Shown here piece by piece: positions 1,704 to 31,426 of a stretch of DNA of 64,000 nucleotides. Within the stretch, counting starts at the first letter, position 1. Every line of letters starts with the position of its first letter. Origin of the DNA: Nitrosopumilus sp. (lineage in GTDB: Archaea > Thermoproteota > Nitrososphaeria > Nitrososphaerales > Nitrosopumilaceae); the NCBI GenBank assembly GCA_965249555.1, contig OZ252243.1:704001-768000 (forward strand), in the 5' to 3' direction. Below the pieces are notes generated by a model. The model was not told the DNA's origin and ran no database searches. It saw only the letters and a program-made list of their open reading frames with translations. The position numbers and the translations under genes are program-made.

Positions 1704-4700
1704 TTTTTCTGTATCATCAAGAGATGGGTTTTCAGTTGGTGCTGCAGGTGTAGTTACAATCAAATCCTCAGATGAAACGCTTGTCTGGGAAATGTCGTTA
1801 GTTGATGTGGCATAATATGTGTAGGATGTTGCAGGAGTCAGACCAGTTTCAGTGTATGATGTATCGCCGGTAGTTGTTAAGAGGATATCACCTCTATACA
1901 ATTTGTATTCATTGGCACCGTCCACTGCAGTCCATGTAATCTCAATGCTTGTCGGAGTGATTGCTCCTGCTCCAAGTGTAGGAGGTGCAGGTGGAGTCGT
2001 TATGGATTCTCTGCCAATCTCATCACCATCAAATGAGAGTGTGACATCGCCACGATAATTATACCCAACTGGCATCGTAGTAGGAGGTAACTGTACACCT
2101 ACTGCATCTTCTGCAATCTCAACAGTAGTGGTCTGATCAACATCATATCCAATTGTAAAGGTACCAGATGTTAATGGTACAAATGTTGCAGATGCATCAT
2201 CAAAACCTGGTGTGACACTAAAAGAGCCAGGTTCAATTGCAGGAACTGCTGGTGCCTTTGGAGTAGTTACTGTCAAATCATCAGATGGGTGACTTGTCTG
2301 GGAAGCATCGTTAGTTGATGTGGCATGATATGTGTAGGATGATTCAGGAGTCAAGGTCTCATCAGTGTAGGATGTATCGCTGGGAGTTGCTATAGAAATG
2401 TCATCTCTAAACAGCTCGTATCCTGTGGCACCAGGTTGTGCAGTCCATGTAATTACAACACTTGTCGGAGTAACTGCTCCTTGCACAAGTGCAGGTGGTG
2501 CAGGTCCAGTCTTTACAGATACACTGCCAATTATTTCACTATCAAATGAGAGGGTGACAGGGTTGTCATAATTATACCCAACTGGTACTGTAGTAGTTGA
2601 TGGCGTATTTACTGCATCGATGATAACAGAAACAGTCTGATCAGTACCATATCCAATTGTAAAGGTACCGGATTTTAATGGTGTAAAGGATGCAGATGCA
2701 TCATCAAAACCTGGTGTGACACTAAAAGAGTCTAGTTCAATTGCAGGTGCCTTTGGAGTAGTTACTGCTGTAAACACAGGCTCACCAATTATAGAAGAAG
2801 GAAAAAAGGATATACCAACTATGCCGATTCTTTCAGCATTGACTAATCTCTCAAAATGGTTAAAAGCAGGAGTAAAATCAGCAGTGGTAACACCTTGCGA
2901 TAATTGGAAAACAGATACTACTTCATCAACACCATCTTCAGTTATATAAAGTTCATAAGTGCCGTTAGAAGATTCTACATTACTCCAAGTTAATCGAATA
3001 TTACCATTAGGTAATAGTTCAGCTGTTAAAGATGGTAGTGAAGCAAATGATGTTGTTACAGGTGTTGTTATTGTAGGTACTGCTGCAAACACAAGCTCAC
3101 CAATTGTAGAAGAAGAAGGGGATATACCAACTATGCCGATTTTTTCAGCATTATTTACTCGGTCAAAAATAGGAATATCAAGATCCATATCATAGGAAGT
3201 AACGCCTGGCGATAATAGGAAATTAATTAGCGGTGTATCAACACTATCTTCAGTTATATAAAGTCCATAAACATCGTTAGGAGATTCTATATTACTCCAA
3301 GTTAATCTAATATAATTATCAGATAATCTTTCAGCTGTTAAAGATGGTAGTGAAGCAAATGATGTTGTTACAGGTGTTGTTATTGTAGGTACTGCTGCAA
3401 ACACAAGCTCACCAATTATTAGAGTATAAGAAGGGGATATACCAACTATGCCGATTCTTTGAGCATTGATTAATCTATCATAAAAGGGAGAAAGGGGAGT
3501 AACATCAGTAGTGGTAACACCTTGCGATAATATGAAAACAAGTAGTTTTTCATCAACATCATCTTCAGTTATATAAAGTTCATACATGCCGCTAGGAGAT
3601 TTTACGTTACTCCAAGTTAATCGAATATTACCATTAGGTAATAGTTCAGCTGTTAAAGATGGTAGTGAAACAAATGGTGTTGTTATTGTAGGTACTGCTG
3701 CAAACACAGGCTCACCAATTATAGAAAAAAGAAGGATATCCATACCAACTATGCCGATTCTTTCAGCATTATTTACTCGGTCAAAAATAAGAAGATCGGG
3801 AGTAATATCAAAGGTAGTGGCGCCGGGCGATAATGGGAAATTACCTAGCAATGTATCAACACCATTTTCAGTTATATAAAATGTATAAACATCGTTAGGA
3901 GATTCTACATTGCTCCAAGTTAATCTAATAGAATCGTCAGGTAATCTTTCAGCTGTTAAAGATGGTGGTAATGGAGGGGGTACTGCTGCAAACACAGGCT
4001 CACCAATTATAGAAGAAAGAAGGGACTCTTTACCAACTATGCCGATTCTTTCAGCATTATTTACTCGGTCAAAAATAAGAAGATCGGGAGTAATATCAAA
4101 GGTAGTAACACCAGGTGATAATGGGAAAGAATCTAGGCTTTTATCAACACCATCTTCAGTTATATAAAGTCCATAAACATTGTTAGGAGATTCTACATTG
4201 CTCCAAGTTAATCTAATAGAATCGTCAGGTAATCTTTCAGCTGTTAAAGATGGTAGTGGAACAAATGGTGTTGTTATTGTAGGTACTGCTGCAAACACAG
4301 GCTCACCAATTGTTATAGTAGACTCACTGGTCTCTTTGCCAACTAGGCCGATTCTTTCAGCATTGATTAATCTATCATAAAAGGGAGAAAGGGGAGTAAC
4401 AACAAATGTAGTAGCACCGGACAATAATATGAAATTAGATACTATTTCATCAACACCATCTTCAGTTAGATAAAGTCCATAAACATTGTTAGGAGATTCT
4501 ATATTGCTCCAAGTTAATCTAATAGAATCATCAGGTAATCTTTCAGCTGTTAAAGATGGTGGTGTTGTTGTTACAGGTGTTGCCATTGTAGGTACTGCAG
4601 TAAACACAGGCTCACCAATTATTGTAGAAGAAGAAGTGAGATAACCAACTATGCCGATTCTTTGAGCATTGACTAATCTCTCAAACTGGTTAAAAGCAGG

Positions 4701-4997
4701 AGTAAAATCAGTAGTGGTAACACCTTGTGATACTGGAGAAATAGTTACTATTTCATCAACACCATCTTCAGTTATATAAAATGTATAAACATTGTTAGGA
4801 GATTCTACATTACTCCAAGTTAATCGAATAGTACCATTAGGTAATAGTTCAGCTGTTAAAGATGGGTCGGGGTTAGTTTGAGCTTGAGCTTCTGCAACAC
4901 TTGCAAAGGTAAGTGATATGGTAAATAGTGCCACCAATACGAGGCAGAAAAATGGAAACTTGGTTGCTTGCAAAGGCAAGTTACATGACAGAGTCAC
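1..4997 (-). CDS. Giant secreted surface/adhesin-like protein (>=1665 aa, runs off the window): signal peptide, 7 FnIII-like ~100-aa repeats, FnIII domains and Ig-like (DUF5011/HYR-like) repeats
   Basis: Not in the ORF track because it has no stop within the window. Manual minus-strand translation from GTG 4997 gives ...FPFFCLVLVALFTISLTFASVAEAQ (signal peptide), then PSLTAE..IRLTWSN repeats, VITWTAQPGATGYELFRD..SYTDETLTPESSYTY (FnIII) and GVYTVLYDAPDDAAGN / DTTPPVIT (Ig-like). The same frame holds at positions 3-60. An upstream ATG at 5044 is out of frame across the poly-G tract. Confidence 0.85.
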   Translation of the reverse strand, partial: MTLSCNLPLQATKFPFFCLVLVALFTISLTFASVAEAQAQTNPDPSLTAELLPNGTIRLTWSNVESPNNVYTFYITEDGVDEIVTISPVSQGVTTTDFTPAFNQFERLVNAQRIGIVGYLTSSSTIIGEPVFTAVPTMATPVTTTPPSLTAERLPDDSIRLTWSNIESPNNVYGLYLTEDGVDEIVSNFILLSGATTFVVTPLSPFYDRLINAERIGLVGKETSESTITIGEPVFAAVPTITTPFVPLPSLTAERLPDDSIRLTWSNVESPNNVYGLYITEDGVDKSLDSFPLSPGVTTFDITPDLLIFDRVNNAERIGIVGKESLLSSIIGEPVFAAVPPPLPPSLTAERLPDDSIRLTWSNVESPNDVYTFYITENGVDTLLGNFPLSPGATTFDITPDLLIFDRVNNAERIGIVGMDILLFSIIGEPVFAAVPTITTPFVSLPSLTAELLPNGNIRLTWSNVKSPSGMYELYITEDDVDEKLLVFILSQGVTTTDVTPLSPFYDRLINAQRIGIVGISPSYTLIIGELVFAAVPTITTPVTTSFASLPSLTAERLSDNYIRLTWSNIESPNDVYGLYITEDSVDTPLINFLLSPGVTSYDMDLDIPIFDRVNNAEKIGIVGISPSSSTIGELVFAAVPTITTPVTTSFASLPSLTAELLPNGNIRLTWSNVESSNGTYELYITEDGVDEVVSVFQLSQGVTTADFTPAFNHFERLVNAERIGIVGISFFPSSIIGEPVFTAVTTPKAPAIELDSFSVTPGFDDASASFTPLKSGTFTIGYGTDQTVSVIIDAVNTPSTTTVPVGYNYDNPVTLSFDSEIIGSVSVKTGPAPPALVQGAVTPTSVVITWTAQPGATGYELFRDDISIATPSDTSYTDETLTPESSYTYHATSTNDASQTSHPSDDLTVTTPKAPAVPAIEPGSFSVTPGFDDASATFVPLTSGTFTIGYDVDQTTTVEIAEDAVGVQLPPTTMPVGYNYRGDVTLSFDGDEIGRESITTPPAPPTLGAGAITPTSIEITWTAVDGANEYKLYRGDILLTTTGDTSYTETGLTPATSYTYYATSTNDISQTSVSSEDLIVTTPAAPTENPSLDDTEKPVITPTGSDTTIELTATDTYTEQGGTVTDNDPDYSETATPSGDTPDTSSIGVYTVLYDAPDDAAGNTPDQQSIVITVSDTTPPTFDVDGNTDDYSTTVPFGGTYAQGTIANAFDISGTAPGMVGGKTVNVNASGEYAVTYTVTDNNEQSRTITETVTVGPDVTPPVITVTPEEITLELDSPAPVLLDGVSTDDGSPITISGTVDVGTVGDYTITYSSTDGTNPAGDKTRTYKVTDTTPPPVPAITTPPATVGSTPITIDGTSTEAGATIQLFNGMTPAGTTTADDSGNFSFAGVELDEGGNSFTARASDGVNTSDPSPAVLITLDTTAPVITPTGSDTTIELTATDTYTEQGGTVTDNDPAYPGTVAVSGDTPDTSSIGVYTVLYDAPDDAAGNTPDQQSIVITVSDTTPPTFDVDGNTDDYSTTVPFGGTYTQGMIANAFDISGTAPGIVGGKTVNVNASGEYAVTYTVTDNNEQSRTITQTVTVGPDVTPPVITPTGSDTTIELTATDTYTEQGGTVTDNDPDYSETATPSGDTPDTSSIGVYTVLYDAPDDAAGNTPDQQSIVI
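2760..4865. repeat. Seven ~300-bp tandem repeats encoding FnIII-like domains with variable segments
   Basis: The motif cagctgttaaagatgg recurs near 3020, 3332, 3647, 3950, 4239, 4544 and 4850, with recurring ctccaagttaat and ccaactatgccgattct blocks. Confidence 0.9.
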
Positions 4998-5008
4998 CCC
5001 CCCCCCCC
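4997..5008 (-). repeat. Poly-G(12) homopolymer in the 5' end of the giant surface gene; candidate phase-variation tract
   Basis: 12 C on the + strand. The ATG 5044 frame reads MKNIIHCVNAPPGGGG-stop; 10 or 13 G would join it to the long ORF. Confidence 0.75.
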
Positions 5009-5075
5009 GGGCGGGGCATTAACGCAGTGAATAATATTTTTCATATAATATTATAAATAATTTAATTTATATAGT

Positions 5076-5348
5076 TTAAAATATCTGTCTGTGTTGTCTT
5101 TTTTGCTTTTTCCATTCAATGGAATTTTTTGATGGCGGAGAGCGTGCATTCTCATAATATGACAGTCTTTTTTGCAGTTCCTTGTTTGATTCTATGAGAT
5201 TCTCTATGATTAATTTTAGTTGTTTTATCTCTGCTTGTAGCTGTATGATGATTTTCTCATGACCACAACCTGACATGTTTTATATGATGATTTAGTTGAT
5301 CTTAGATCTTTTTGTGTAATGATATTGATTTGTGCGTGAAGGTTGATA
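5076..5348 (-). mobile_element. Truncated IS66-family element (left end plus 5' fragment of the transposase); its terminal 5 bp lie at 6678-6682, beyond the IS110 insertion
   Basis: ORF 5076-5276 (MSGCGHEKIIIQLQ...) matches the N-terminus of 30044-31393, and 5277-5348 is the reverse complement of the IS66 left end at 29972-30043. Confidence 0.9.
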
Positions 5349-5355
5349 ACTATAT

Positions 5356-6471
5356 GTGAATACAAAAAGAAGGAATTCAGATAGCATAGGAAATGAATCT
5401 AATTCCAAGATTCGTAATTCATCGTATTCCAAGAAAAGTCCAAAGAAACAGATTAGGGGAAAAAAAGACAAGGGCATGTATGTTGGCATTGACTTGCACA
5501 AGAAATTTCTTCAAGTGGCAACAATGGATAATGACGGAAAGATATTACAAAACATAAAAGTTGAGAACACTCATGAATCAATCAGGAAACATTTTACAGA
5601 CATACCGATTCATGCAAACATTGTCATGGAATCATCATCAGTTTGGTATAACACGTATAGATTTCTTACAGATGAATTGGGATACAAAAACGTAATACTG
5701 TCAAACCCGTATCTTACAAAGGCAATAGCTGCATCAAAAAAGAAGACAGACAAGATTGATGCCAGGATACTGGCAGATCTTTTGCGCGGGGGATACATTG
5801 CAACATGTCATGTTCCAAACAAAAAGATAGTAAAACATCGCCAGCTGGTAAGATACAGAAAAAAACTCATTCAGTGGAGAACATCTCTCAAAAATTCTGT
5901 CCATGGAATTTTGTTGCAGGAGGGAATCAAGATACCAGGAGTCACGTTCACTGTAACATACAACAGAAGACTCACCTCCCTAGGTGACTATCGCATAGAC
6001 GGATTCGTACGACAGATAGACTATCTTAATCTGCAAATTGAAGATATTAATTCAAGAGTGTATGCTGCTGTAAATGCCAGTCCTGATGCCATGATAATAA
6101 AATCAATACCCGGAATTGGTGACTACTCGTCACTAGTTATCGCATCAGAAATTGCAAATATTGACAGATTCAACAACTCTCACAAGTTATGCGCATATGC
6201 AGGAGTCGTGCCATCAGTCAGAAACTCTGCAGACACGATACATCATGGCCGTATAACCAAAAGAGGAAGCATGACACTACGATGGGTCCTTATCCAATGC
6301 GTCCATTCTCATGCAATACATGCCAAGAACAGTGACATTACAAAATTTTACAATCGCATTAAAAAGAAGAGAGGCTCATCAAAGGCCGCAGTTGCCGCAT
6401 CATCAAAGATCCTGCGAGTGATTTACTGGATGCTAAAAGAGAGGAGAGAATTTGTACAGAATTACAGTTAG
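5356..6471 (+). CDS. IS110-family transposase/recombinase
   Basis: YVGIDLHK, VMESS and KTDKIDARILA (DEDD RuvC-like); SIPGIG and AYAGVVPSVRNSA (C-terminal Tnp domain with conserved Ser). Start is GTG 5356 or ATG 5476. Confidence 0.95.
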   Translation: MNTKRRNSDSIGNESNSKIRNSSYSKKSPKKQIRGKKDKGMYVGIDLHKKFLQVATMDNDGKILQNIKVENTHESIRKHFTDIPIHANIVMESSSVWYNTYRFLTDELGYKNVILSNPYLTKAIAASKKKTDKIDARILADLLRGGYIATCHVPNKKIVKHRQLVRYRKKLIQWRTSLKNSVHGILLQEGIKIPGVTFTVTYNRRLTSLGDYRIDGFVRQIDYLNLQIEDINSRVYAAVNASPDAMIIKSIPGIGDYSSLVIASEIANIDRFNNSHKLCAYAGVVPSVRNSADTIHHGRITKRGSMTLRWVLIQCVHSHAIHAKNSDITKFYNRIKKKRGSSKAAVAASSKILRVIYWMLKERREFVQNYS

Positions 6472-6640
6472 GACTGCAAGTCGCGTTTGGTATGTTGAGG
6501 GACAGGCCTCGGTTGATAACTGCGGATAGGTCCTAACGAAGGGATGAAGATAGCATTGAGGAAGAAGCCTCGTATGGATACATGTCCGTCATCTTTTGTT
6601 TGAAAGCATTCCCTAGCGAAAGCTATGCCTTGGGATGTAA
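6467..6640 (+). ncRNA. Putative bridge/seek RNA of the IS110 element
   Basis: Stems gttaggac/gtcctaac (6467-6474/6530-6537) and gaagggatga/tcatctttt each enclose a GAGG-N6-CCTC hairpin flanked by guide-like matches to the target and donor sites. A third hairpin tagc-GAAA-gcta follows. The structure is conserved in the copies at ~10950-11120 and 29781-29870. Confidence 0.75.
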
Positions 6641-6647
6641 AAAAGTA

Positions 6648-6662
6648 GGAAATGTATAAAAA
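6648..6662 (+). promoter_or_regulatory. Outward-facing archaeal BRE/TATA-like promoter in the IS110 right end
   Basis: ggaaatg-TATAAAAA (TATA at 6655-6662), with the TATA conserved in four right-end copies. In the excised circle the first T would sit 30 nt upstream of GTG 5356. Confidence 0.55.
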
Positions 6663-6682
6663 CAATTCACATGGATACATAC

Positions 6683-7062
6683 CTAATTTTTCCTTGTTCT
6701 CCTCAAAGACTATGTTGTCGTATTGGATTTTGTGTTTGTTTAGAAATTTCTCAACACCCTTGCTGTGTATGGGATTGTTGGTTACTATATCCACACCATC
6801 ATACATCTCTGATAGTATCCTTATCTTTTGTTCCAGCATCAGCTCTGTCGGCTCTAGCGTATCCCACTGCTCCCAGCACTGCGAATATCCCGCGTGCATC
6901 ATCATATGTCATGTTGAATTTTCTGTAAAAACCAAACTCGCTTATCTTGTTATATGACAGTTTCAAGTCGGAATATTTTGCAGAATAGTCCATGTTGAAT
7001 ATTGAGATCCATTTTTTTATCGTATTTGATAGTACACCATCAAAGTCTACGGCTATACTCAT
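6683..7062 (-). pseudogene. HAD-family 5'(3')-deoxyribonucleotidase-like gene, frameshifted and truncated by the IS66 insertion
   Basis: IAVDFDGVL motif in 6799-7062 continues in another frame (QCWEQWDTLEP...DIVTN...IVFEENKEKL) and is cut at the IS66 end at 6682. Confidence 0.7.
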
Positions 7063-7119
7063 GTTATTTGTTAGAATATTTTAAAAATTATTTGTAAAAA
7101 ATACTAAATATTTTTTAAA

Positions 7120-10231: not shown

Positions 10232-10471
10232 TTATTCTGATAACCCATGATGATCAAAGACTCCCAACTTTGTTTCGGTCTCCCTATCTTTCCTAGCTCT
10301 TTCTCTAGAACCCATATAGCGAGCTTTGGTTCTTAATAGATGTCCACAACATGGACATCTTGCTCCCTCACATTTGATATACATCTCACATACTTTGCAA
10401 CGTTTCCGTCCACCATCATATCGTGTACCTTTTTCTGTTACCCTATATCTGATGCAAATTCCCTTACAAGC
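10232..10471 (-). pseudogene. Small Cys-rich zinc-finger protein whose start codon was removed at an IS110 fragment
   Basis: Manual translation: ACKGICIRY...GRKRCKVCEMYIKCEGARCPCCGHLLRTKAR...SE*. IS110 internal sequence begins immediately upstream. Confidence 0.65.
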
Positions 10472-11161
10472 TAGGTGACTATCGCATAGACGGATTCGTA
10501 CGACAGATAGACTATCTTAATCTGCAAATTGCAGTGATTAATTCAAGAGTGTATGCTGCTGTAAAGACCAGTCCTGATGCCATGATAATAAAATCAATAC
10601 CAGGAATTGGTGACTAATCACTAGTTATCGCATCAGAAATTGCAGATATTACCAGATTCAATGACTCTCACAAGTTATGCGCATATGCACGAGTCGTGCC
10701 ATCAGTCAGAAACTCTGCAGACACGATACACCATGGCAGCATAACCAAAAGAGGAAGCATGACACTACGATGGGTCCTTGTCCAATGCGTCCATTCTCAT
10801 GCAATACATGCCAAGAACAGTGACATTACAAAATTTTACAATCGCATTAAAAAGAAGAGAGGCTCATCAAAAGATGTAGTTGCCGCATCATCAAAGATCC
10901 TGCGAGTGATTTACTGGATGCTAAAAGAGAGAATTTGTACAGAATTACAGTTAGGACTGCAAGTCGCGTTTTGTATGTTGAGGGACAGGCCTCGGTTGAT
11001 AACTGCGGATAGGTCCTAACGAAGGGATGAAGATAGCAATTGAGGAATAAGCCTCGTATGGATACATGTCCGTCATCTTTTGATTGAAAGCATTCTCCAG
11101 CGAAGGCTATGCCTTGGGATGCAAAAAAGTGGGAAATGTATAAAAACAATTCACATGGATA
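10471..11161 (+). mobile_element. 5'-truncated, degenerate IS110 copy with an intact non-coding right end
   Basis: Matches 5980-6677 with small deletions and stops; ends ...attcacatggaTA followed by catac. Confidence 0.9.
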
Positions 11162-11167
11162 CATACA

Positions 11168-20891: not shown

Positions 20892-20981
20892 GTAGATATA
20901 TCAAACACTTTAGATGTATCCATGTGAATTGTTTTTATACATTTCCCACTTTTTTACACCCCAAGGCATAGCCTTCGCTAG
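20892..20981 (-). mobile_element. IS110 right-end relic (20917-20981) joined to an IS66 right-end relic (20892-20916)
   Basis: The reverse complement reads tagcgaaggctatgccttgggg...gtataaaaacaattcacatggaTAcatctaaagtgtttgata. Confidence 0.8.
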
Positions 20982-24381: not shown

Positions 24382-24578
24382 TTTCTTTTGATATGATTCC
24401 AATCGCCTGTCTTTGTTTTCAAATCTGGTTTCATGAGGATATTTTTTACAGCATCACAAACCCCTCTAAACTCATTGGAATATACTGAACCTCGAGGACT
24501 GTCGTTTTGTAGAATTACACGAACTGACAATTTTCATGATTGTAATAATAGAATTCACATTCTAATTGTTAATTTTTA

Positions 24579-25241
24579 TCATATATCTGACCGTAACCTA
24601 TTTCCATTCTTGTCAAAATCCATTTTACAATACAACACACCATTCCCATCATATCTCTTCTGCCATTTCCTATTCCCATTCTCATGGTACTCTATTTCAT
24701 AATCTAATTTCCCATTATCATGATATCCTTTTTCCCATTTCCCATTCCCATGGTACTTTATTTCATAATTTAATTTCCCATTCTCATAATATCCTTTTTC
24801 CCATTTCCCATTCCCATTCTCTTGAAGCTCTGCTTCTAATTGCAATTGTCCATTCTCATAATATCCTTTACCCCATTTCCCATTCCCATTCTCATGGTAC
24901 TCTATTTCATAATCTAATTTCCCATTATCATAATATCCTTTTTTCCATTTCTTATTCCCATTCTCTTGAAGCTCTGCTTCTAATTGCAATTGTCCATTTT
25001 CATAATAGCCTTTACCCCATTTCCTATTCCCATTCTCATAGTACTCTATTTCATAATATAATTTCCCATTCTCATAATATCCTTTTTCCCATTTCCTATT
25101 CCCATTCTCATGGTACTCTATTTCATAATCTAATTTCCCATTATCATAATATCTTTTTTCCCATTTCCTATTCCCATTCTCTTGAAGCTCTGCTTCTAAT
25201 TTCAATTGTCCATTCTTATAATAGAGTTTTTTTCGTTTCAT
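24579..25241 (-). CDS. MORN-variant (YwqK-like) repeat protein; probably starts at ATG 25319 with an in-frame TAG at 25293-25295
   Basis: About nine 24-aa units YYENG.L..E.E..ENGN.KW.KG (72-bp repeats); the upstream in-frame sequence reads MGKLPYKE*HENGKLKGEIQYQEDGN. Confidence 0.8.
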   Translation of the reverse strand: MKRKKLYYKNGQLKLEAELQENGNRKWEKRYYDNGKLDYEIEYHENGNRKWEKGYYENGKLYYEIEYYENGNRKWGKGYYENGQLQLEAELQENGNKKWKKGYYDNGKLDYEIEYHENGNGKWGKGYYENGQLQLEAELQENGNGKWEKGYYENGKLNYEIKYHGNGKWEKGYHDNGKLDYEIEYHENGNRKWQKRYDGNGVLYCKMDFDKNGNRLRSDI

Positions 25242-25344
25242 ATTTCCATCCTCTTGATACTGTATTTCACCTTTTAATTTCCCATTTTCATGCTATTCTT
25301 TGTATGGTAGTTTTCCCATTATGTTTGATCCTATTAGTTTTTGA

Positions 25345-25405
25345 GTATGTATCAACCTTCACGCACAAATCAATATCATTACACAAAAAGATCCAAGATC
25401 AACTA
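25345..25405 (+). mobile_element. IS66 left-end relic
   Basis: gtatgtatcaaccttcacgcac...gatcaacta is near identical to 29967-30027. Confidence 0.85.
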
Positions 25406-26413
25406 ACTATATGTGAATACAAAAAGAAGGAATTCAGATAGCATAAAAAATGAACCCAGATCCAGGAGTCGTAATCCATCGTATTCCAAGAAAAGTCCAA
25501 AGAAACAGATTAGGGCAAAAAAAGACAAGGGCATGTATGTTGACATTGACTTGCACAAGGAATTTCTTCTAGCAACAATGGATAATGACAGAAAGATATT
25601 ACAAAACATAAAAGTTGAGAACACTCATAAATCAATCAAGAAACATTTTACAGACATACCAATATTGTCATGGAATCATCATCAGTCTGGTATGGCACGT
25701 ATAGATTTCTTACAGATGAATTAGGATACAAAAATGTTACACTCTCAAACCCGTATCTTACAAAGGCAATAGCTGCATCAAAAAAAACAGGCAAGATTGA
25801 TGCTATGATACTAGCCAGATCTTTTGCGCGGGGGATACATTGCAACATGCCATATTCCAAACAAAAAGATAGTAAAACATCGCCAGCTGGTAAGATACAG
25901 AAAAAAACTCGTTCAGTTTAGAATCTCTCTCAAAAATTCTGTTCATGGAATTTTGTTACAAGAGGGAATCAAGATACCCGGAGTCACGTTCACTGTAACA
26001 TACAACAGAAAACTCATGTTACTAGATGACTATCGCATAGATGGATTTGTACGACAGATAGACTATCCTAATCTGCAAATTGCAGAGATTAATTCAAGAG
26101 TGTATGCTGCTGTAAAGACCAGTCCTGATGCCATGATAATAAAATCAATGCCAGGAATTGGTGACTACTCGTCACTAGTTATCGCATCAGAAATTGCAAA
26201 TATTAACAGATTCAACAACTCTCACAAGTTATGCGCATATGCCGGAGTCGTGCTATCAGTTAGAAATTCTGCAGACACAATACACCATGGCAGTATAACC
26301 AAAAGGGGAAGCATGACACTACGATGGGTTCTTATCCAATGTGTTCATTCTCATGCAATACATGCCAAGAACAGTGACATTACAAAATTTTACAATCGCA
26401 TTAAAAAGAAGAG
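25406..26413 (+). pseudogene. Frameshifted, 3'-truncated IS110 transposase copy
   Basis: Begins actatatgtgaatac, as at 5349; split over ORFs 25413, 25670 and 25824; homology ends at aaaaagaagag (26413). Confidence 0.9.
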
Positions 26414-27738: not shown

Positions 27739-28881
27739 GAGACATGGGCATAATCTATTCTAATTTTTAACCGATTTCTCAAATTATTCAAATAGAAAAA
27801 GCCAAGGATCTCAATCATGTTTTGTTCATTGGAATGATTACAAAACAAATAAAAATCCCTGACAAGATTCTATGTGAGTCATTTCTTATTAGTATTTTGT
27901 ATCTGGTTGGAACACTATATCTGTATGAGAATGCAGTGAGACGAGGACGGCCATATGTCTATTCAACTGTTCTGATGGTTCAGTTATTCATCATAAAGTC
28001 ATGGATGAGAATTCCAAGTAACAACACACTGCATTATTTTCTCTCAATCAAATGTACCAATGACAAATTACTCAAGGTTTGCAGACTAAACCAAATCCCT
28101 GACAGAAGGACAATTGACAGAAGATTTCAATGCTTGCCAATCAATGAAATTATTAACACTGTAGGAAATTTGTTTGTCTCAGAAGGATTGGTGAATAGTG
28201 AATCAGCATCAGTTGATAGTTCAATGCTAAAAGCTTCAGGTCCAGTATGGCACAAATCAGACATCAAAAAGAATCACCTACCAATTGCAGGAATTGACAC
28301 AAATGCCAGGTGGGGATTCTCCAAATCAAAGGGTTGGGTGTATGGATACAAACTACACATGAGTTGCAGTACGGGAAGACTAGTTGTTCCATTATCTGCA
28401 TGTGTAACTACTGCAAATGTCCATGATAGCAAGCCATATGAGAAATTGATTGGGTCACTTTCTGGATTGATGAATAACATACTGTGTGATCCGGCATATG
28501 ATGATTCCAAACTATACGAGTCAACTAAGAATAATGCCATGAGATTAATCTGTCCGGTCAAAAAATACCCGTCTACGCCGCCAGCCAGAATAAAGTTGAT
28601 AGGGTTTTACAATTCAGCAGTTGGTCGGAAATTATATTCTCAGAGAAAAATATCAATTGAACCACTCTTTGAAATAATCAAGGATACGTTTAACATTAGA
28701 ACAGTTCCGGTGAAAGGATTTGAGAACGTACAATCATTCGTGCTGATTTGTGTGCTGGTGTATCAGTTGGCAGTGTATTATAATTGTGTAATTGGAAGTG
28801 GGAATCCAAGGATTGTGAAAAGAATGCTTTGTTGTTAGAGAAGAGTCTTGGTTTTTTTGTAAATCATTATGCCCAAGTCTC
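27739..28881 (+). mobile_element. Intact DDE insertion sequence (IS982/IS5-like) with 16-bp TIRs and an 8-bp TSD
   Basis: TIRs gagacatgggcataat / attatgcccaagtctc (1 mismatch); TSD agataatt at 27731-27738 and 28882-28889. Confidence 0.9.
27822..28838 (+). CDS. DDE transposase (DDE_Tnp_1-like)
   Basis: VDSS, GWVYGYKLH, TANVHD, CDPAYD and RKISIEPLF motifs. Confidence 0.92.
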   Translation: MFIGMITKQIKIPDKILCESFLISILYLVGTLYLYENAVRRGRPYVYSTVLMVQLFIIKSWMRIPSNNTLHYFLSIKCTNDKLLKVCRLNQIPDRRTIDRRFQCLPINEIINTVGNLFVSEGLVNSESASVDSSMLKASGPVWHKSDIKKNHLPIAGIDTNARWGFSKSKGWVYGYKLHMSCSTGRLVVPLSACVTTANVHDSKPYEKLIGSLSGLMNNILCDPAYDDSKLYESTKNNAMRLICPVKKYPSTPPARIKLIGFYNSAVGRKLYSQRKISIEPLFEIIKDTFNIRTVPVKGFENVQSFVLICVLVYQLAVYYNCVIGSGNPRIVKRMLCC

Positions 28882-29704: not shown

Positions 29705-29780
29705 ATCAATTCTTGATTTTTTACTATGTGTTTGATCAGCGTAGTATATGCTACTTGTATTGATTTGCCTATTCCACCTT

Positions 29781-29936
29781 GAAGATAGCATTGAGGTTAA
29801 AGCCTCGTATGGATACATGTCCGTCATCTTTTGATTGAAAGCATTCCCTAGCGAAAGCTATGCCTTGAGATGCAAAAAAGTGGAAAATGTATAAAAACAA
29901 TTCACATGGATACATCTAAAGTGCTTGGATACATAC
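29781..29936 (+). mobile_element. IS110 right-end relic (donor loop to TA 29911-29912) joined to an IS66 right-end relic
   Basis: Matches 6546-6677, followed by catctaaagtgcttggatacatac, which resembles the IS66 right end at 31387-31408. Confidence 0.85.
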
Positions 29937-29966
29937 TAATGATCATGTTTATAAATTCATGAAAAA

Positions 29967-31408
29967 GTATGTATCAACCTTTACGCATGAATCAACACTA
30001 TTACACAAAAAGATCTAAGATCAACTAAATCATCATACAAAACATGTCAGGTTGTGGTCATGAGAAAATCATCATACAGCTACAAGAAGAGATAAAACAA
30101 CTACAAGCAGAGATAAAACAACTAAAACTAATCACAGGGAATCTCATAGAATCAAACAAGGAACTGCAAAAAAAGCTGTCATATTATGAGAATGCGCACT
30201 CTCCGCCATCAAAGAATTCCCTTGAATGGAGAAAGCAAAAAAGACAACACAGACAGCCAGGCAAATCAAGACGTGGTGGAATAGCAGGACACGTTGGCAA
30301 GACACAGAAATTCAGACCAACTAGCACCAAACACCACAGATCAGATGCATGTCCCAAATGCGGTAGTGAAAATATTCATCAAACCAAAACCTGCAAAAGG
30401 ATAATGGTTGAGATTCCTCCACCAACACCCTACGGTATAACTGAGCATGTTTTGAATCAATACATCTGCATGGACTGTTCTGATAATTTTCAAACCACGG
30501 GAAACCTTCCACTACATGGATGTTTTGATGGTTCAGTGATACGTGAGGTCGTCTCACTGTTCTCAAAGAGATTGCCATATGATACCATCAGAACCACACT
30601 CTATGAAAGATATGGATTAGAAATCAGCAATACAACCGTACAATCCATTCTTCGCAACGGTAGTGTGATGTTAGAGTCATTTTACAATACAATCCACAGC
30701 GAAATCGTGACTGAAAAGATTCTCGGAATCGATGAGACAGGATTTTCAATTGATGGAAATACTGGATGGATGTGGGTTGCAAGAAGCAAGACTAGTGCAC
30801 AGTATGCCTTGGAGTACAGCAGAGGTGCCAATGTTCTAAAAAAGTACTGGAAGAAATTCAAAGGAACCCTAGTGTCTGACGGATATGCTCCGTACAGGAC
30901 AGTATTTTGTGATAACACAAAGCAGAGATGCACTGCACACCTGCAGCGCGATGCCAAATATCTGGCAATAAAATCAAAAGACAAAAAGGCCAGGATTCTA
31001 TACGAGAAACTCTCAGATATGCTAGGTCATGCCAGGGTTTGGAGTGTAGGTAATCGTCATACAAAACGGCGGGAAACGTACAGGAATGATTTACTAAAAC
31101 AGCTGGACCGTATCATTGCACGATATTTGAAAGGTGATATGGAGATGGTTCAGTTTGGCAAGAAGCTAAAGACTGCAAGGAACAGCATGTTTACGTTTGT
31201 CATGGATGGCGATGTCCCGTCAACTAACAATGATGCAGAGAATTCCATTCGAAAGTGCGTGATGCAGAGGAATGTTCGCGGGCAGATGAAGAGTGATCAG
31301 GGCATGAGGATGATCTCAGTCTTTCTCACATGCTTTGAGACATGGAGAATAAGGGAATTGAACATGTTTTCTGAAATGGCAAAATACATCTAAGTGCTTA
31401 ATACATAC
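29967..31408 (+). mobile_element. Intact IS66-family element (single-ORF type)
   Basis: TIR gtatgtat/atacatac; 8-bp TSD atgaaaaa at 29959-29966 and 31409-31416. Confidence 0.92.
30044..31393 (+). CDS. IS66-family transposase (TnpC-like)
   Basis: Coiled coil, HSPPS, CPKCG/CMDC zinc ribbon, GIDETG, LVSDGYAPY, QRCTAHLQR and TNNDAENSIR. Confidence 0.95.
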   Translation: MSGCGHEKIIIQLQEEIKQLQAEIKQLKLITGNLIESNKELQKKLSYYENAHSPPSKNSLEWRKQKRQHRQPGKSRRGGIAGHVGKTQKFRPTSTKHHRSDACPKCGSENIHQTKTCKRIMVEIPPPTPYGITEHVLNQYICMDCSDNFQTTGNLPLHGCFDGSVIREVVSLFSKRLPYDTIRTTLYERYGLEISNTTVQSILRNGSVMLESFYNTIHSEIVTEKILGIDETGFSIDGNTGWMWVARSKTSAQYALEYSRGANVLKKYWKKFKGTLVSDGYAPYRTVFCDNTKQRCTAHLQRDAKYLAIKSKDKKARILYEKLSDMLGHARVWSVGNRHTKRRETYRNDLLKQLDRIIARYLKGDMEMVQFGKKLKTARNSMFTFVMDGDVPSTNNDAENSIRKCVMQRNVRGQMKSDQGMRMISVFLTCFETWRIRELNMFSEMAKYI

Positions 31409-31426
31409 ATGAAAAATGTGTTAAAT

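Follow-up and report, generated by a model that had tools for sequence, protein, structure and literature searches.

A putative RNA-guided IS110 element at the tip of an IS66 transposon in a Nitrosopumilaceae archaeon

How does one insertion sequence come to lie exactly within the terminal repeat of another, and does the inserted element carry anything that is written for that site? The question is raised by an element at positions 5349-6675 of a 64,000-nucleotide stretch of Nitrosopumilus sp. contig OZ252243.1 (positions 704,001 to 768,000 of the forward strand), which we refer to as the window and whose coordinates are used unless the genome is named. The genome is one 2.23-Mb contig, and small- and large-subunit (SSU and LSU) ribosomal RNA models assign it to the archaea. 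An initial annotation had described the element as an archaeal, RNA-guided member of the IS110 family aimed at IS66 ends. We report here its anatomy, the conserved fold of its 3' region, the covariation of two RNA loops with the flanks and ends of the element, and a census of its insertion sites. We consider it very probable that this is an IS1111-type IS110 element whose recombinase is RNA-guided, the first module of the RNA reading the target and the second reading the joined ends of the element. Our confidence is lower on the separate question of whether IS66 ends are a selected niche or a by-product of their abundance.

The DNA on either side of the element provides the first part of the answer. 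To its left, positions 5085-5348 (minus strand) carry the remnant of an IS66-family left end, truncated at 5085 and without its outermost five bases (blastn, 86.7% identity over 285 bp); this remnant corresponds to positions 290-6, reversed, of an IS66 reference copy at 29967-31409, and an open reading frame (ORF) at 5076-5276 encodes a 66-amino-acid (aa) N-terminal fragment of the IS66 transposase. Since the remnant stops at position 6, the five bases that follow the right-hand TA, CATAC at 6678-6682, can be identified as the missing tip, namely the outermost five bases (GTATG, minus strand) of the IS66 left inverted repeat, split off from the remainder. Excision of the element with one TA restores GTATG-TA-TCAACC, which is GTATGTATCAACC, just as the initial annotation had proposed. 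The same sequence occurs at 25345 and 29967 of the window (2 matches against 0.07 expected; at least 2 in 1 of 100 shuffles) and, as an intact IS66 left tip without the element, 46 times in the genome. The reference copy encodes, at 30044-31393, a 449-aa transposase that matches DDE_Tnp_IS66 (PF03050, 4.8e-42) and NCBIfam NF033517 (224.6 bits, cut-off 180), has the tips GTATGTATCAACC... and ...GCTTAATACATAC, and is flanked on both sides by the 8-bp duplication ATGAAAAA. It holds a single ORF; the classical IS66 family has three. The genome contains 26 near-full IS66 copies, and about 2% of it is IS66.

The element is bounded by the core dinucleotide TA, with a left copy at 5347-5348 and a right copy at 6676-6677. 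BLAST located 44 pieces of the element in the genome (42 were found by a second genome search), comprising 9 full-length copies, 21 left ends and 29 right ends; all 21 left flanks end in TA and 27 of the 29 right flanks start with it. In the window, the left junction reads ggttga-TA (5341-5348) and then actatatg (actatatgtgaat), and the right junction reads cacatgga-TA (up to 6677) and then catac (6678-6682). The non-coding left end (5349-5475), which begins ACTATATG and is also present in 21 genomic copies and in related lineages, contains the subterminal inverted repeat ATGTGAAT at 5354-5361 (8 bp, 5 bp inside the end), and the right end contains ATTCACAT at 6665-6672 (8 bp, 3 bp inside the end). 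The termini themselves, ACTATATG... and ...CACATGGA, are not inverted repeats of each other, in keeping with the IS110 family, whose members lack such repeats and duplicate nothing of the target except a short core common to donor and target. The longer of the two ends lies downstream of the gene (right end 204 bp, 6472-6675; left end 127 bp, 5349-5475), and its outer part (6588-6675), which includes a further conserved stem region, is kept in all copies.

Between these ends lies a recombinase gene of 331 aa (5476-6471, plus strand), read from the ATG at 5476; the ORF listing extends the start to a GTG at 5356. Relatives with 45-86% identity, found at 76 loci in Nitrosopumilus, Cenarchaeum and Nitrosopumilaceae records, align from residue 1 of the ATG 5476 reading. 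The protein matches both Pfam families PF01548 (3.9e-25, 88.9 bits) and PF02371 (1.7e-21, 76.8 bits), exceeds the equivalog cut-off of 140 for NCBIfam NF033542, 'IS110 family RNA-guided transposase', with 225.6 bits, and aligns to IS621 (8wt6) with E = 1.5e-13. The segments GID, mES, kTDkiDA and PsvrnS stand opposite their IS621 counterparts, and the catalytic D, E, D and D together with the serine are present; the IS621 residues are reported as D11, E60, D102, D105 and S241 (PMC11208158). In the G--P----S(G) motif, the serine is followed by A rather than G and the motif thus reads SA, unlike the SG or TG of IS1111-type enzymes. The label IS1111-type is applied because the subterminal repeats, the longer right end, the want of terminal repeats and the flanking TA match reported features of that group, for which published descriptions give subterminal inverted repeats of 7-17 bp (PMC11208160) and, among the features of the branch, a transposase length of 330-350 aa (PMC11187229). 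Read from these sequence features, with the 3' RNA and the guide order described below, the element is assigned to the IS110 family and, within it, to the IS1111 type, which bears out the initial annotation of an archaeal IS110 element.

Just downstream of the gene we predict a structured plus-strand RNA of ~130 nt (6467-6600). The prediction comes from an RNAalifold consensus and from pair counts on an alignment of 18 lineages with 45-86% protein identity, and it comprises five main helices, P1 to P5 (six by pair counting), arranged in two tandem modules. Predicted module 1, the candidate target-binding module (6467-6537, plus strand), is formed by P1 (6467-6472/6532-6537), which overlaps the recombinase stop codon, P2 (6481-6485/6521-6525) and hairpin P3 (6496-6500/6507-6511); predicted module 2, the candidate donor-binding module (6542-6587, plus strand), is formed by P4 (6542-6546/6583-6587) and hairpin P5 (6557-6561/6568-6572). 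Beside an internal loop, each carries the hairpin sequence GAGG-N6-CCTC, at 6497-6510 and 6558-6571 respectively. The junctions, loops and hairpins of the initial annotation, and its stem 6467-6474/6530-6537, are all correctly placed in the sequence. It had also suggested folding this region; a single-sequence fold reproduced its two modules yet proved no better than that of shuffled sequences, but the comparative fold is well supported. Standard pairs make up 98.9% of 467 cells, a value reached by none of 500 shuffles, and changes on both sides are seen in 10 of the 26 pairs (again 0/500 shuffles), falling to at most 2 pairs when partners are slid by 1-3 columns; in P5, 3 of the 5 pairs show compensatory changes. 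Because several of the conserved G-U pairs would be A-C on the opposite strand, the folded molecule would be the plus strand, in the sense of the gene.

These helices bear directly upon an RNA-free explanation of the locus, in which the non-coding region is a protein-bound DNA mimic of target and donor and matching takes place at the level of DNA. Some rearrangement junctions do fall inside donor-loop DNA, as where an IS66 right tip is joined at a shared GATACAT (genome position 2221507), but the conserved G-U pairs and the compensatory changes in five helices point to a folded, single-stranded, plus-strand RNA, and IS621 and ISEc11 are reported from experiment to use RNA (PMC11208160, PMC11187229). 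We give matching by DNA alone very little credence and return to RNA guidance.

If the RNA is a guide, its loops should be legible against the DNA around each copy, and in loop 1 they are. The strands between P2 and P3 are hypervariable between lineages, with the stems conserved. In the window, the 5' strand TTTGGTATGT (6486-6495, plus strand) has 7 contiguous matches to its own right flank: GGTATGT at 6489-6495, of which gtatgt is 6490-6495, complements A-CATAC-C in the top strand at the right junction, and one base beyond CATAC is read into unique flank. The 3' strand (6512-6520, plus strand), taken with G6511, reads GGTTGA-TA-AC, which is left flank, core and the start of the left end and repeats what is found at the left junction (5341-5351); it includes ggttgata, or GGTTGATA, at 6511-6518, and all 6 left-target bases match. 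The claim that loop 1 matches both sides of the IS66 site is accordingly upheld, with 8/8 bases on one side and 7 contiguous bases on the other.

The same relationship holds between lineages. Summed over 17 lineages (L105, L095 and L079 being dropped for a duplicate target or guide), the longest runs of the 5' strand against its own right junction come to 98, compared with 47.6 +/- 5.3 when partners are permuted (0/20,000), and single lineages, L033, L050 and L102, match 9 contiguous right-junction bases. The 3' strand has a common layout of six bases, TA, A[ACT] and the P2 stem, and when it is anchored on TA-A[ACT]-stem in 13 lineages (12 loci and the window) whose left end could be read and was not nested, 55 of 78 positions agree with the own left flank, against 22.9 +/- 4.5 permuted (0/20,000). 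An earlier permutation in a fixed 6+2 frame, from which L105, L036, L071, L065, L095 and the lineages without a readable left end were dropped, gave a weaker result (37 against 21.1 +/- 4.0; 3/20,000). L065 and L071 have nested left-end remnants (ACTAT-AACCAT-AACCATATGTG) and a sibling-type RNA region, which suggests that they are recombinant elements. Of the two guide strands, the one that complements the top strand comes first (5'), and they overlap at the insertion point; the same order and overlap are described for IS1111-type seekRNAs (PMC11187229). The register of the OZ242186 lineage, in which the core is CA, was considered for the window guide and rejected: both junctions carry TA, and the TA of the 3' strand lies at a fixed position. 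Judged by these sequence comparisons, loop 1 is the target-binding loop.

Loop 2 behaves as a reader of the element's own ends. Its 5' strand AAGATAGCAT (6547-6556, plus strand) contains ATAGC, which complements a left end GCTAT, and its 3' strand TATGGATACA (6573-6582, plus strand) contains ATGGA-TA, which is right end and core, followed by CA(T), the start of the right target; the motif atggata lies at 6574-6580. In all 16 lineages in which both were read, the motif AT[G/A]GATA corresponds to the right end CAT[G/A]GA, a comparison that omits L045 (a 1-base deletion) and L089 (right end unread); L095, outside the alignment, shows one mismatch. On the 5' side, ATAG accompanies [A/G]CTAT left ends and ATGG accompanies ACCAT left ends, with single-base exceptions in L073 and L083. 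The atag (6550-6553) of the initial annotation is thus part of ATAGC, which complements GCTAT, found in 8 of the 21 left ends of the genome; the left end of the window copy reads ACTAT, a mismatch of one base. By the same kind of comparison loop 2 is the donor-binding loop, and the earlier claim of two 3' non-coding modules with target and donor loops is sustained by covariation across the 18 lineages and by the matches to flanks and ends.

The 3' strands of both loops extend beyond the core, into TA-ACT (the start of the left end) in loop 1 and TA-CAT (the start of the right target) in loop 2. This read-through is matched in some lineages, where ACC accompanies ACCAT (L078, L105) and TGT accompanies the right target (L067, L078, L105), and mismatched in others (L073, L084, L102). 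By analogy, it may recall the handshake guides described for IS621 (PMC11208158), in which guide strands likewise run a few bases past the core into the other partner, yet the IS621 handshake bases lie beside the top-pairing strands, the read-through of the present element is on the other strand, and it is seen in some lineages only.

Taken together, these features would describe the following mechanism. A DEDD/serine recombinase would be guided by a ~130-nt RNA encoded directly 3' of its gene. On the right-hand side of the TA crossover, the 5' strand of module 1 would pair with the top strand, and the 3' strand, being the top-strand sequence on the left (six target bases and TA), would pair with the bottom strand. 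Module 2 would read the joined ends of the element, its 3' strand corresponding to right end and TA and its 5' strand being complementary to the left end. Module 1 of the window copy would thus spell GGTTGA-TA-CATACC, a sequence that covers the IS66 left inverted repeat at its tip and a single base outside it, and the element sits exactly there. Re-aiming would proceed by mutation of module 1 only, to give variants directed at other positions of IS66 ends, at IS66-derived mini-elements or at unrelated sites. The RNA as agent, a circular intermediate and the chemistry of strand exchange we infer by homology to IS621 and ISEc11. DNA contigs of four runs, aligned to 4900-7100, showed no locus-specific empty site or circle junction; these contigs break at repeats and none spans the element. 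One contig in that alignment joins 5775 to 6584 (short side 28).

Such re-aiming can be followed within the one genome, among the 20 copies that keep the whole RNA region. Differing cells make up 23.8% of the target-loop columns against 4.4% of the rest of the RNA region, and the donor loop differs in 0/380 cells. Contrary to the earlier claim of invariant guides, the 5' strand of loop 1 occurs in 10 versions and the 3' strand in 8 among these copies, and it is this variation, in step with the flanks, that provides the principal evidence; the claim is understandable, because the sole other copy in the window that has loop 1 differs only at 6489, outside gtatgt. The 5' strands score 118 against their own flanks, compared with 84.3 +/- 6.3 permuted (n=20; 0/20,000). 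Individual copies make the point plainly. In the copy at genome positions 282100-283432 the complement of the guide is ACAATCATAA and the flank is ACAATCATAA, a right match of 10/10, and its 3' strand GTTTTT-TA faces a flank GATTTT-TA, a left match of 5/6. In the copy at 533292-534613, ACATACAAAA is matched 10/10, and in that at 193196-194530 a G-to-A change in the guide accompanies a flank CATAT instead of CATAC, with 8 matches.

Among the 9 full-length copies, three still have the 331-aa ORF, namely the window copy and those at 282100-283432 and 193196-194530. Contiguous right-flank matches in these three number 7, 10 and 8, respectively, and left-target matches are 6/6, 5/6 and 3/6, the first two being the best of all 9. 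An IS1111-type element is reported to need flanks at the donor copy that match its RNA in order to move (PMC11187229), and the flank matches of the intact copies fit this requirement; the window element is intact and probably mobile in this Nitrosopumilaceae archaeon.

Several incomplete copies accompany them. A second copy in the window, at 25345-26413, is 92% identical, truncated at element position 1031 and broken in its ORF; its insertion point is position 61 of the left end of an IS66 (ATCAAC-TA|ACTATATG), of which the first 62 bp only are present. At 10471-11166 another copy is represented by its 3' 700 bp (element positions 640-1342), with the guide variant TTTTGTATGT and the right flank TACATACATT. 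Elsewhere in the genome, seven 3' halves start at element position 826-827 (C1:57115, 1558715, 1584120, 1661095, 1839073, 2075544 and 2219668), retaining RNA and right end, with guides and flanks that differ. Six of the seven are preceded by the end of another repeat, ...GATTTCGTATGGG (other end CGTTATACGAAATC...), with an apparent 3-bp duplication AGA. A 'chimeric second subfamily' was considered for these fragments and discarded, the shared upstream sequence being only 77-215 bp and representing the end of another repeat inserted there.

The tracking of flank by guide also addresses the suggestion that CATAC is simply the element's own right end, that restoration of the IS66 tip is coincidental and that the element merely prefers xxTGATA sites. 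TACATAC is indeed found in 16 of the 29 right ends regardless of the sequence beyond, and the full-length copies at 237-1553, 533292-534613 and 1213504-1214839 of the genome have CATAC on the right and a non-IS66 flank on the left. Yet 11 of the 27 right flanks that start with TA differ after it (CAATC, CATAT, CATGC, CATCT, ATCTT and others) and do so in step with their own guide, the guide base beyond CATAC covaries (C, A or T) in 9 of 11 CATA[CT]-type copies, and the remnant at 5085-5348 is without exactly the five bases found after the element. A coincidence of this kind strikes us as highly improbable.

Set against RNA guidance are several observations that a full account must accommodate. 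The register of the 5' guide relative to hairpin P3 shifts by 0-2 bases between lineages at constant loop length, which is not obviously reconciled with a rigid ribonucleoprotein. The left end of the window copy mismatches its own donor loop at one base, as described above, and in 6 of the 9 full-length copies the left flank agrees poorly with the 3' strand, at 1-3 of 6 bases. The cells compared within the genome are not independent, the copies being related. Folded as a single sequence, the plus strand gives z = -1.28, with 25 of 200 shuffles folding equally well (the other strand, at z = -0.86, is uninformative), and a scan of 5000-7000 against Rfam returned 4 unrelated sub-threshold matches, none over the RNA, although Rfam 15 may hold no bridge-RNA model of this kind. 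Finally, the 46 perfect 13-base IS66 left-tip sites stand unoccupied.

Where, then, does the family insert? By census, 12 of the 21 left junctions in the genome lie in IS66-derived ends (11 by BLAST and one diverged case by eye), at five positions: one at the left terminus, which is the window copy; two, both truncated copies, at the equivalent right terminus (GCTTGA-TA); one ~20 bases inside the right end (AAAA-TA-CATCT); one at position 61 of the left end (ATCAAC-TA), which is the second window copy, at 25404; and seven after base 31 of the left repeat. The remaining 9 junctions lie outside IS66. The IS66 terminus that the initial annotation named as the target is thus the site of the window copy, but of no other copy at the left terminus, and the broader claim that the family is aimed at IS66 ends is true of 12 junctions, not of the other 9, and of only 2 of ~12 related lineages.

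Guide variants correspond to several of these positions. Position 61 of the left end is matched by the guide GTCAAC-TA with AAATCAT, and AATCAA-TA by GGTCAA-TA; a third variant, the complement of ACATCTAA, suits both the right subterminal site and the centre of a mini-element. The mini-element, of 54 bp, consists of two IS66 tips (genome position 506620) and accounts for junctions of the form AATCAA-TA | element | TA-CATCTAAAGTGCTTGATACATAC. A right junction of this type lies at 29915 of the window, and at 29780-29939 and 20914-20981 fragments of the element's right end are followed by TA-CATCTAAAGTGCTTGGATACATAC, the right part of an IS66-derived mini-element, which at the former site stands directly upstream of the complete IS66 at 29967. 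The seven composites at base 31, consisting of a 31-nt IS66 tip, the element and CATAC, carry guides of the terminus type, with CATAC on the right, and could have arisen by recombinase-mediated deletion across IS66 or by insertion into mini-elements. No 8-bp duplication of IS66 type surrounds the composites in the 2 cases that have both outer flanks, and hitch-hiking by IS66 transposition, which the initial annotation had proposed beside a disabling of IS66, is accordingly no more than a conjecture.

A second genome provides a further instance. In the lineage of record OZ250170, whose protein is 76% identical and of which 12 loci out of 14 were examined, the guides GCTTGC-TA and the complement of TGATTCATA match an IS66-type tip site; T(T)GATTCATAC stands directly right of the element in 11 of the 12 loci, with insertion 10 bases from the IS66-type tip. 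Nine of these 11 loci lie in an ~83-bp IS66-type miniature element (MITE); the other two, L050 and L053, are found in a complete right end of IS66. Some other lineages target short, unrelated motifs, and L078/L105 target the left end of a sibling IS110 element, AACTA-TA-TGTGAATAAG, where insertion into the left end of the sibling lineage (AACTA-TA-TGTGAAT) is seen. Targeting of IS66 is therefore recurrent in two lineages and is not a property of the whole family.

Traffic in the opposite direction is also observed. IS66 has inserted into the RNA region of the element at C1:529440 and C1:2122030, once in the 3' strand of loop 1 and once in the 5' strand of loop 2, and the two families can therefore be said to interrupt each other; at L063, in another genome, an IS110 copy has its donor loop region interrupted by an ~83-bp miniature element with IS66-type tips. 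Three ATGTAT/ATACAT sites, at C1:1247806-1248899, 536552 and 2071100, are occupied by a third kind of insertion sequence (~1.1 kb, with AGCGA[CA]GA..AAAGTTCGTGAAC as its inverted repeats); two of the sites lie within the IS110 element and one at the same TA of an IS66 tip.

How this distribution came about admits of more than one explanation. It is conceivable, though in our view rather doubtful, that the Nitrosopumilaceae harbour a guild of bridge-RNA elements parasitic on mobile DNA, in which target loops would be rewritten against IS66 tips, IS66-derived miniatures and the left ends of sibling IS110 elements, truncated copies left with just the RNA and the right end would serve the few intact recombinases as a library of guides acting in trans, and IS66 would be restrained or ridden. 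Equally, the elements may be RNA-guided without IS66 ends being a selected niche: guides would drift, variants that match multicopy sequence would leave more survivors, and IS66 with its mini-derivatives would stand out as the commonest repeats, in which insertion is harmless to the host. The 9 non-IS66 junctions, the empty left tips, the 2 of 3 intact copies that are aimed at non-IS66 sites, the restriction of adjacency with IS66-type tips to 2 lineages and the unrelated or sibling targets of the others all agree with drift. Against drift, at least four guide variants each fit a different IS66-end position (the terminus, left ~61, the mini-MITE centre and the right subterminal site), and the lineage of another genome is written for yet another position of an IS66-type tip. 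Such repeated convergence on one partner suggests something more than drift, yet survivorship and niche selection predict much the same pattern, and drift too we hold as a tentative explanation, less probable than not by some way.

The class of mechanism proposed here, the natural re-direction of guides and, in bacteria, the targeting of transposon tips are already known. The closest described relatives are the IS1111-type elements ISEc11, ISKpn4 and ISPa11, with a 3' seekRNA (Siddiquee et al. 2024, PMC11187229). The window element resembles elements of the ISEc11 type in its DEDD transposase of ~330-350 aa class, its long downstream non-coding region and its subterminal inverted repeats, and in having two short matches, to the top and bottom strands, that overlap at the insertion point with the top-complementary match 5'; the natural re-direction reported between ISEc11 and ISXne4 (PMC11187229) likewise involves a change in the target-matching bases only. 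It differs in that its host is archaeal and its target an IS66 tip, that its RNA would consist of two tandem stem-loop modules with internal loops closed by GAGG/CCTC hairpins, and that re-direction has occurred many times among the paralogous copies of one genome. With IS621 and its bridge RNA (Durrant et al. 2024, PMC11208160; Hiraizumi et al. 2024, PMC11208158) it shares an alignable recombinase and target and donor loops in which each DNA strand at a 2-nt core has a guide strand of its own, but the IS621 RNA is located in the left end, upstream of the gene, and the core is CT.

Two further comparisons concern the targets and the partial copies. The bacterial IS1111-family pair IS4321/IS5075 reportedly targets the terminal inverted repeats of another transposon, Tn21, and the present case is similar in that an IS110/IS1111-family element has the terminal inverted repeat of another transposon as its target; that pair, however, is bacterial and is said to use one fixed site in a Tn3-family partner, whereas several positions and several guide variants are found here. 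In Pseudomonas putida, ISPpu9 is reported to have a downstream small RNA, Ssr9, with stand-alone ssr9 copies, and to target REP sequences (PMC12288879). The RNA gene downstream of the transposase and the occurrence of RNA copies without the full element are features in common, but the seven RNA-bearing 3' halves from position 826 are truncation products beside another repeat and have diversified guides. Archaeal IS110 recombinases have been catalogued, with 662 homologues (10.1101/2024.06.21.599552). A literature search, which did not extend to the supplementary tables of the 2024 surveys, where archaeal bridge RNAs may be listed, found no paper on IS110 with IS66 in Thaumarchaeota, and a search on IS66 with bridge RNA found nothing related. 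New are the anatomy of the RNA in an archaeon, IS66 tips and IS66-derived miniature elements as the partner, and the density of guide diversification in one genome.

The remainder of the window contains other repetitive sequence. Direct repeats of ~300 bp with short open frames (...LLQVNLIESSGNLSAVKDG...) occupy 3400-4900 and are followed by a C/G homopolymer tract at ~4997-5015. Overlapping repetitive ORFs lie on both strands at 24566-25441, where the minus-strand ORF 24579-25241 encodes YYENGKL...ENGNRKWEKG repeats. Between the truncated element copy and the mini-element, a 338-aa ORF at 27822-28838 resembles another transposase.

The family offers a clean natural case of the reprogramming of a bridge or seek RNA, in which a target loop has diversified and a donor loop has remained frozen within one 2.2-Mb archaeal genome. 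It extends the documented RNA anatomy of the IS110 family to the Nitrosopumilaceae, which are ammonia-oxidising archaea, in a compact system of a 331-aa recombinase and a predicted RNA of ~130 nt. As an archaeal counterpart, with other partners, to IS4321/IS5075 in Tn21, it makes transposon conflict in archaea directly testable. Were the guild of parasitic elements to prove real, it would amount to a natural RNA-programmed anti-transposon layer in archaea.

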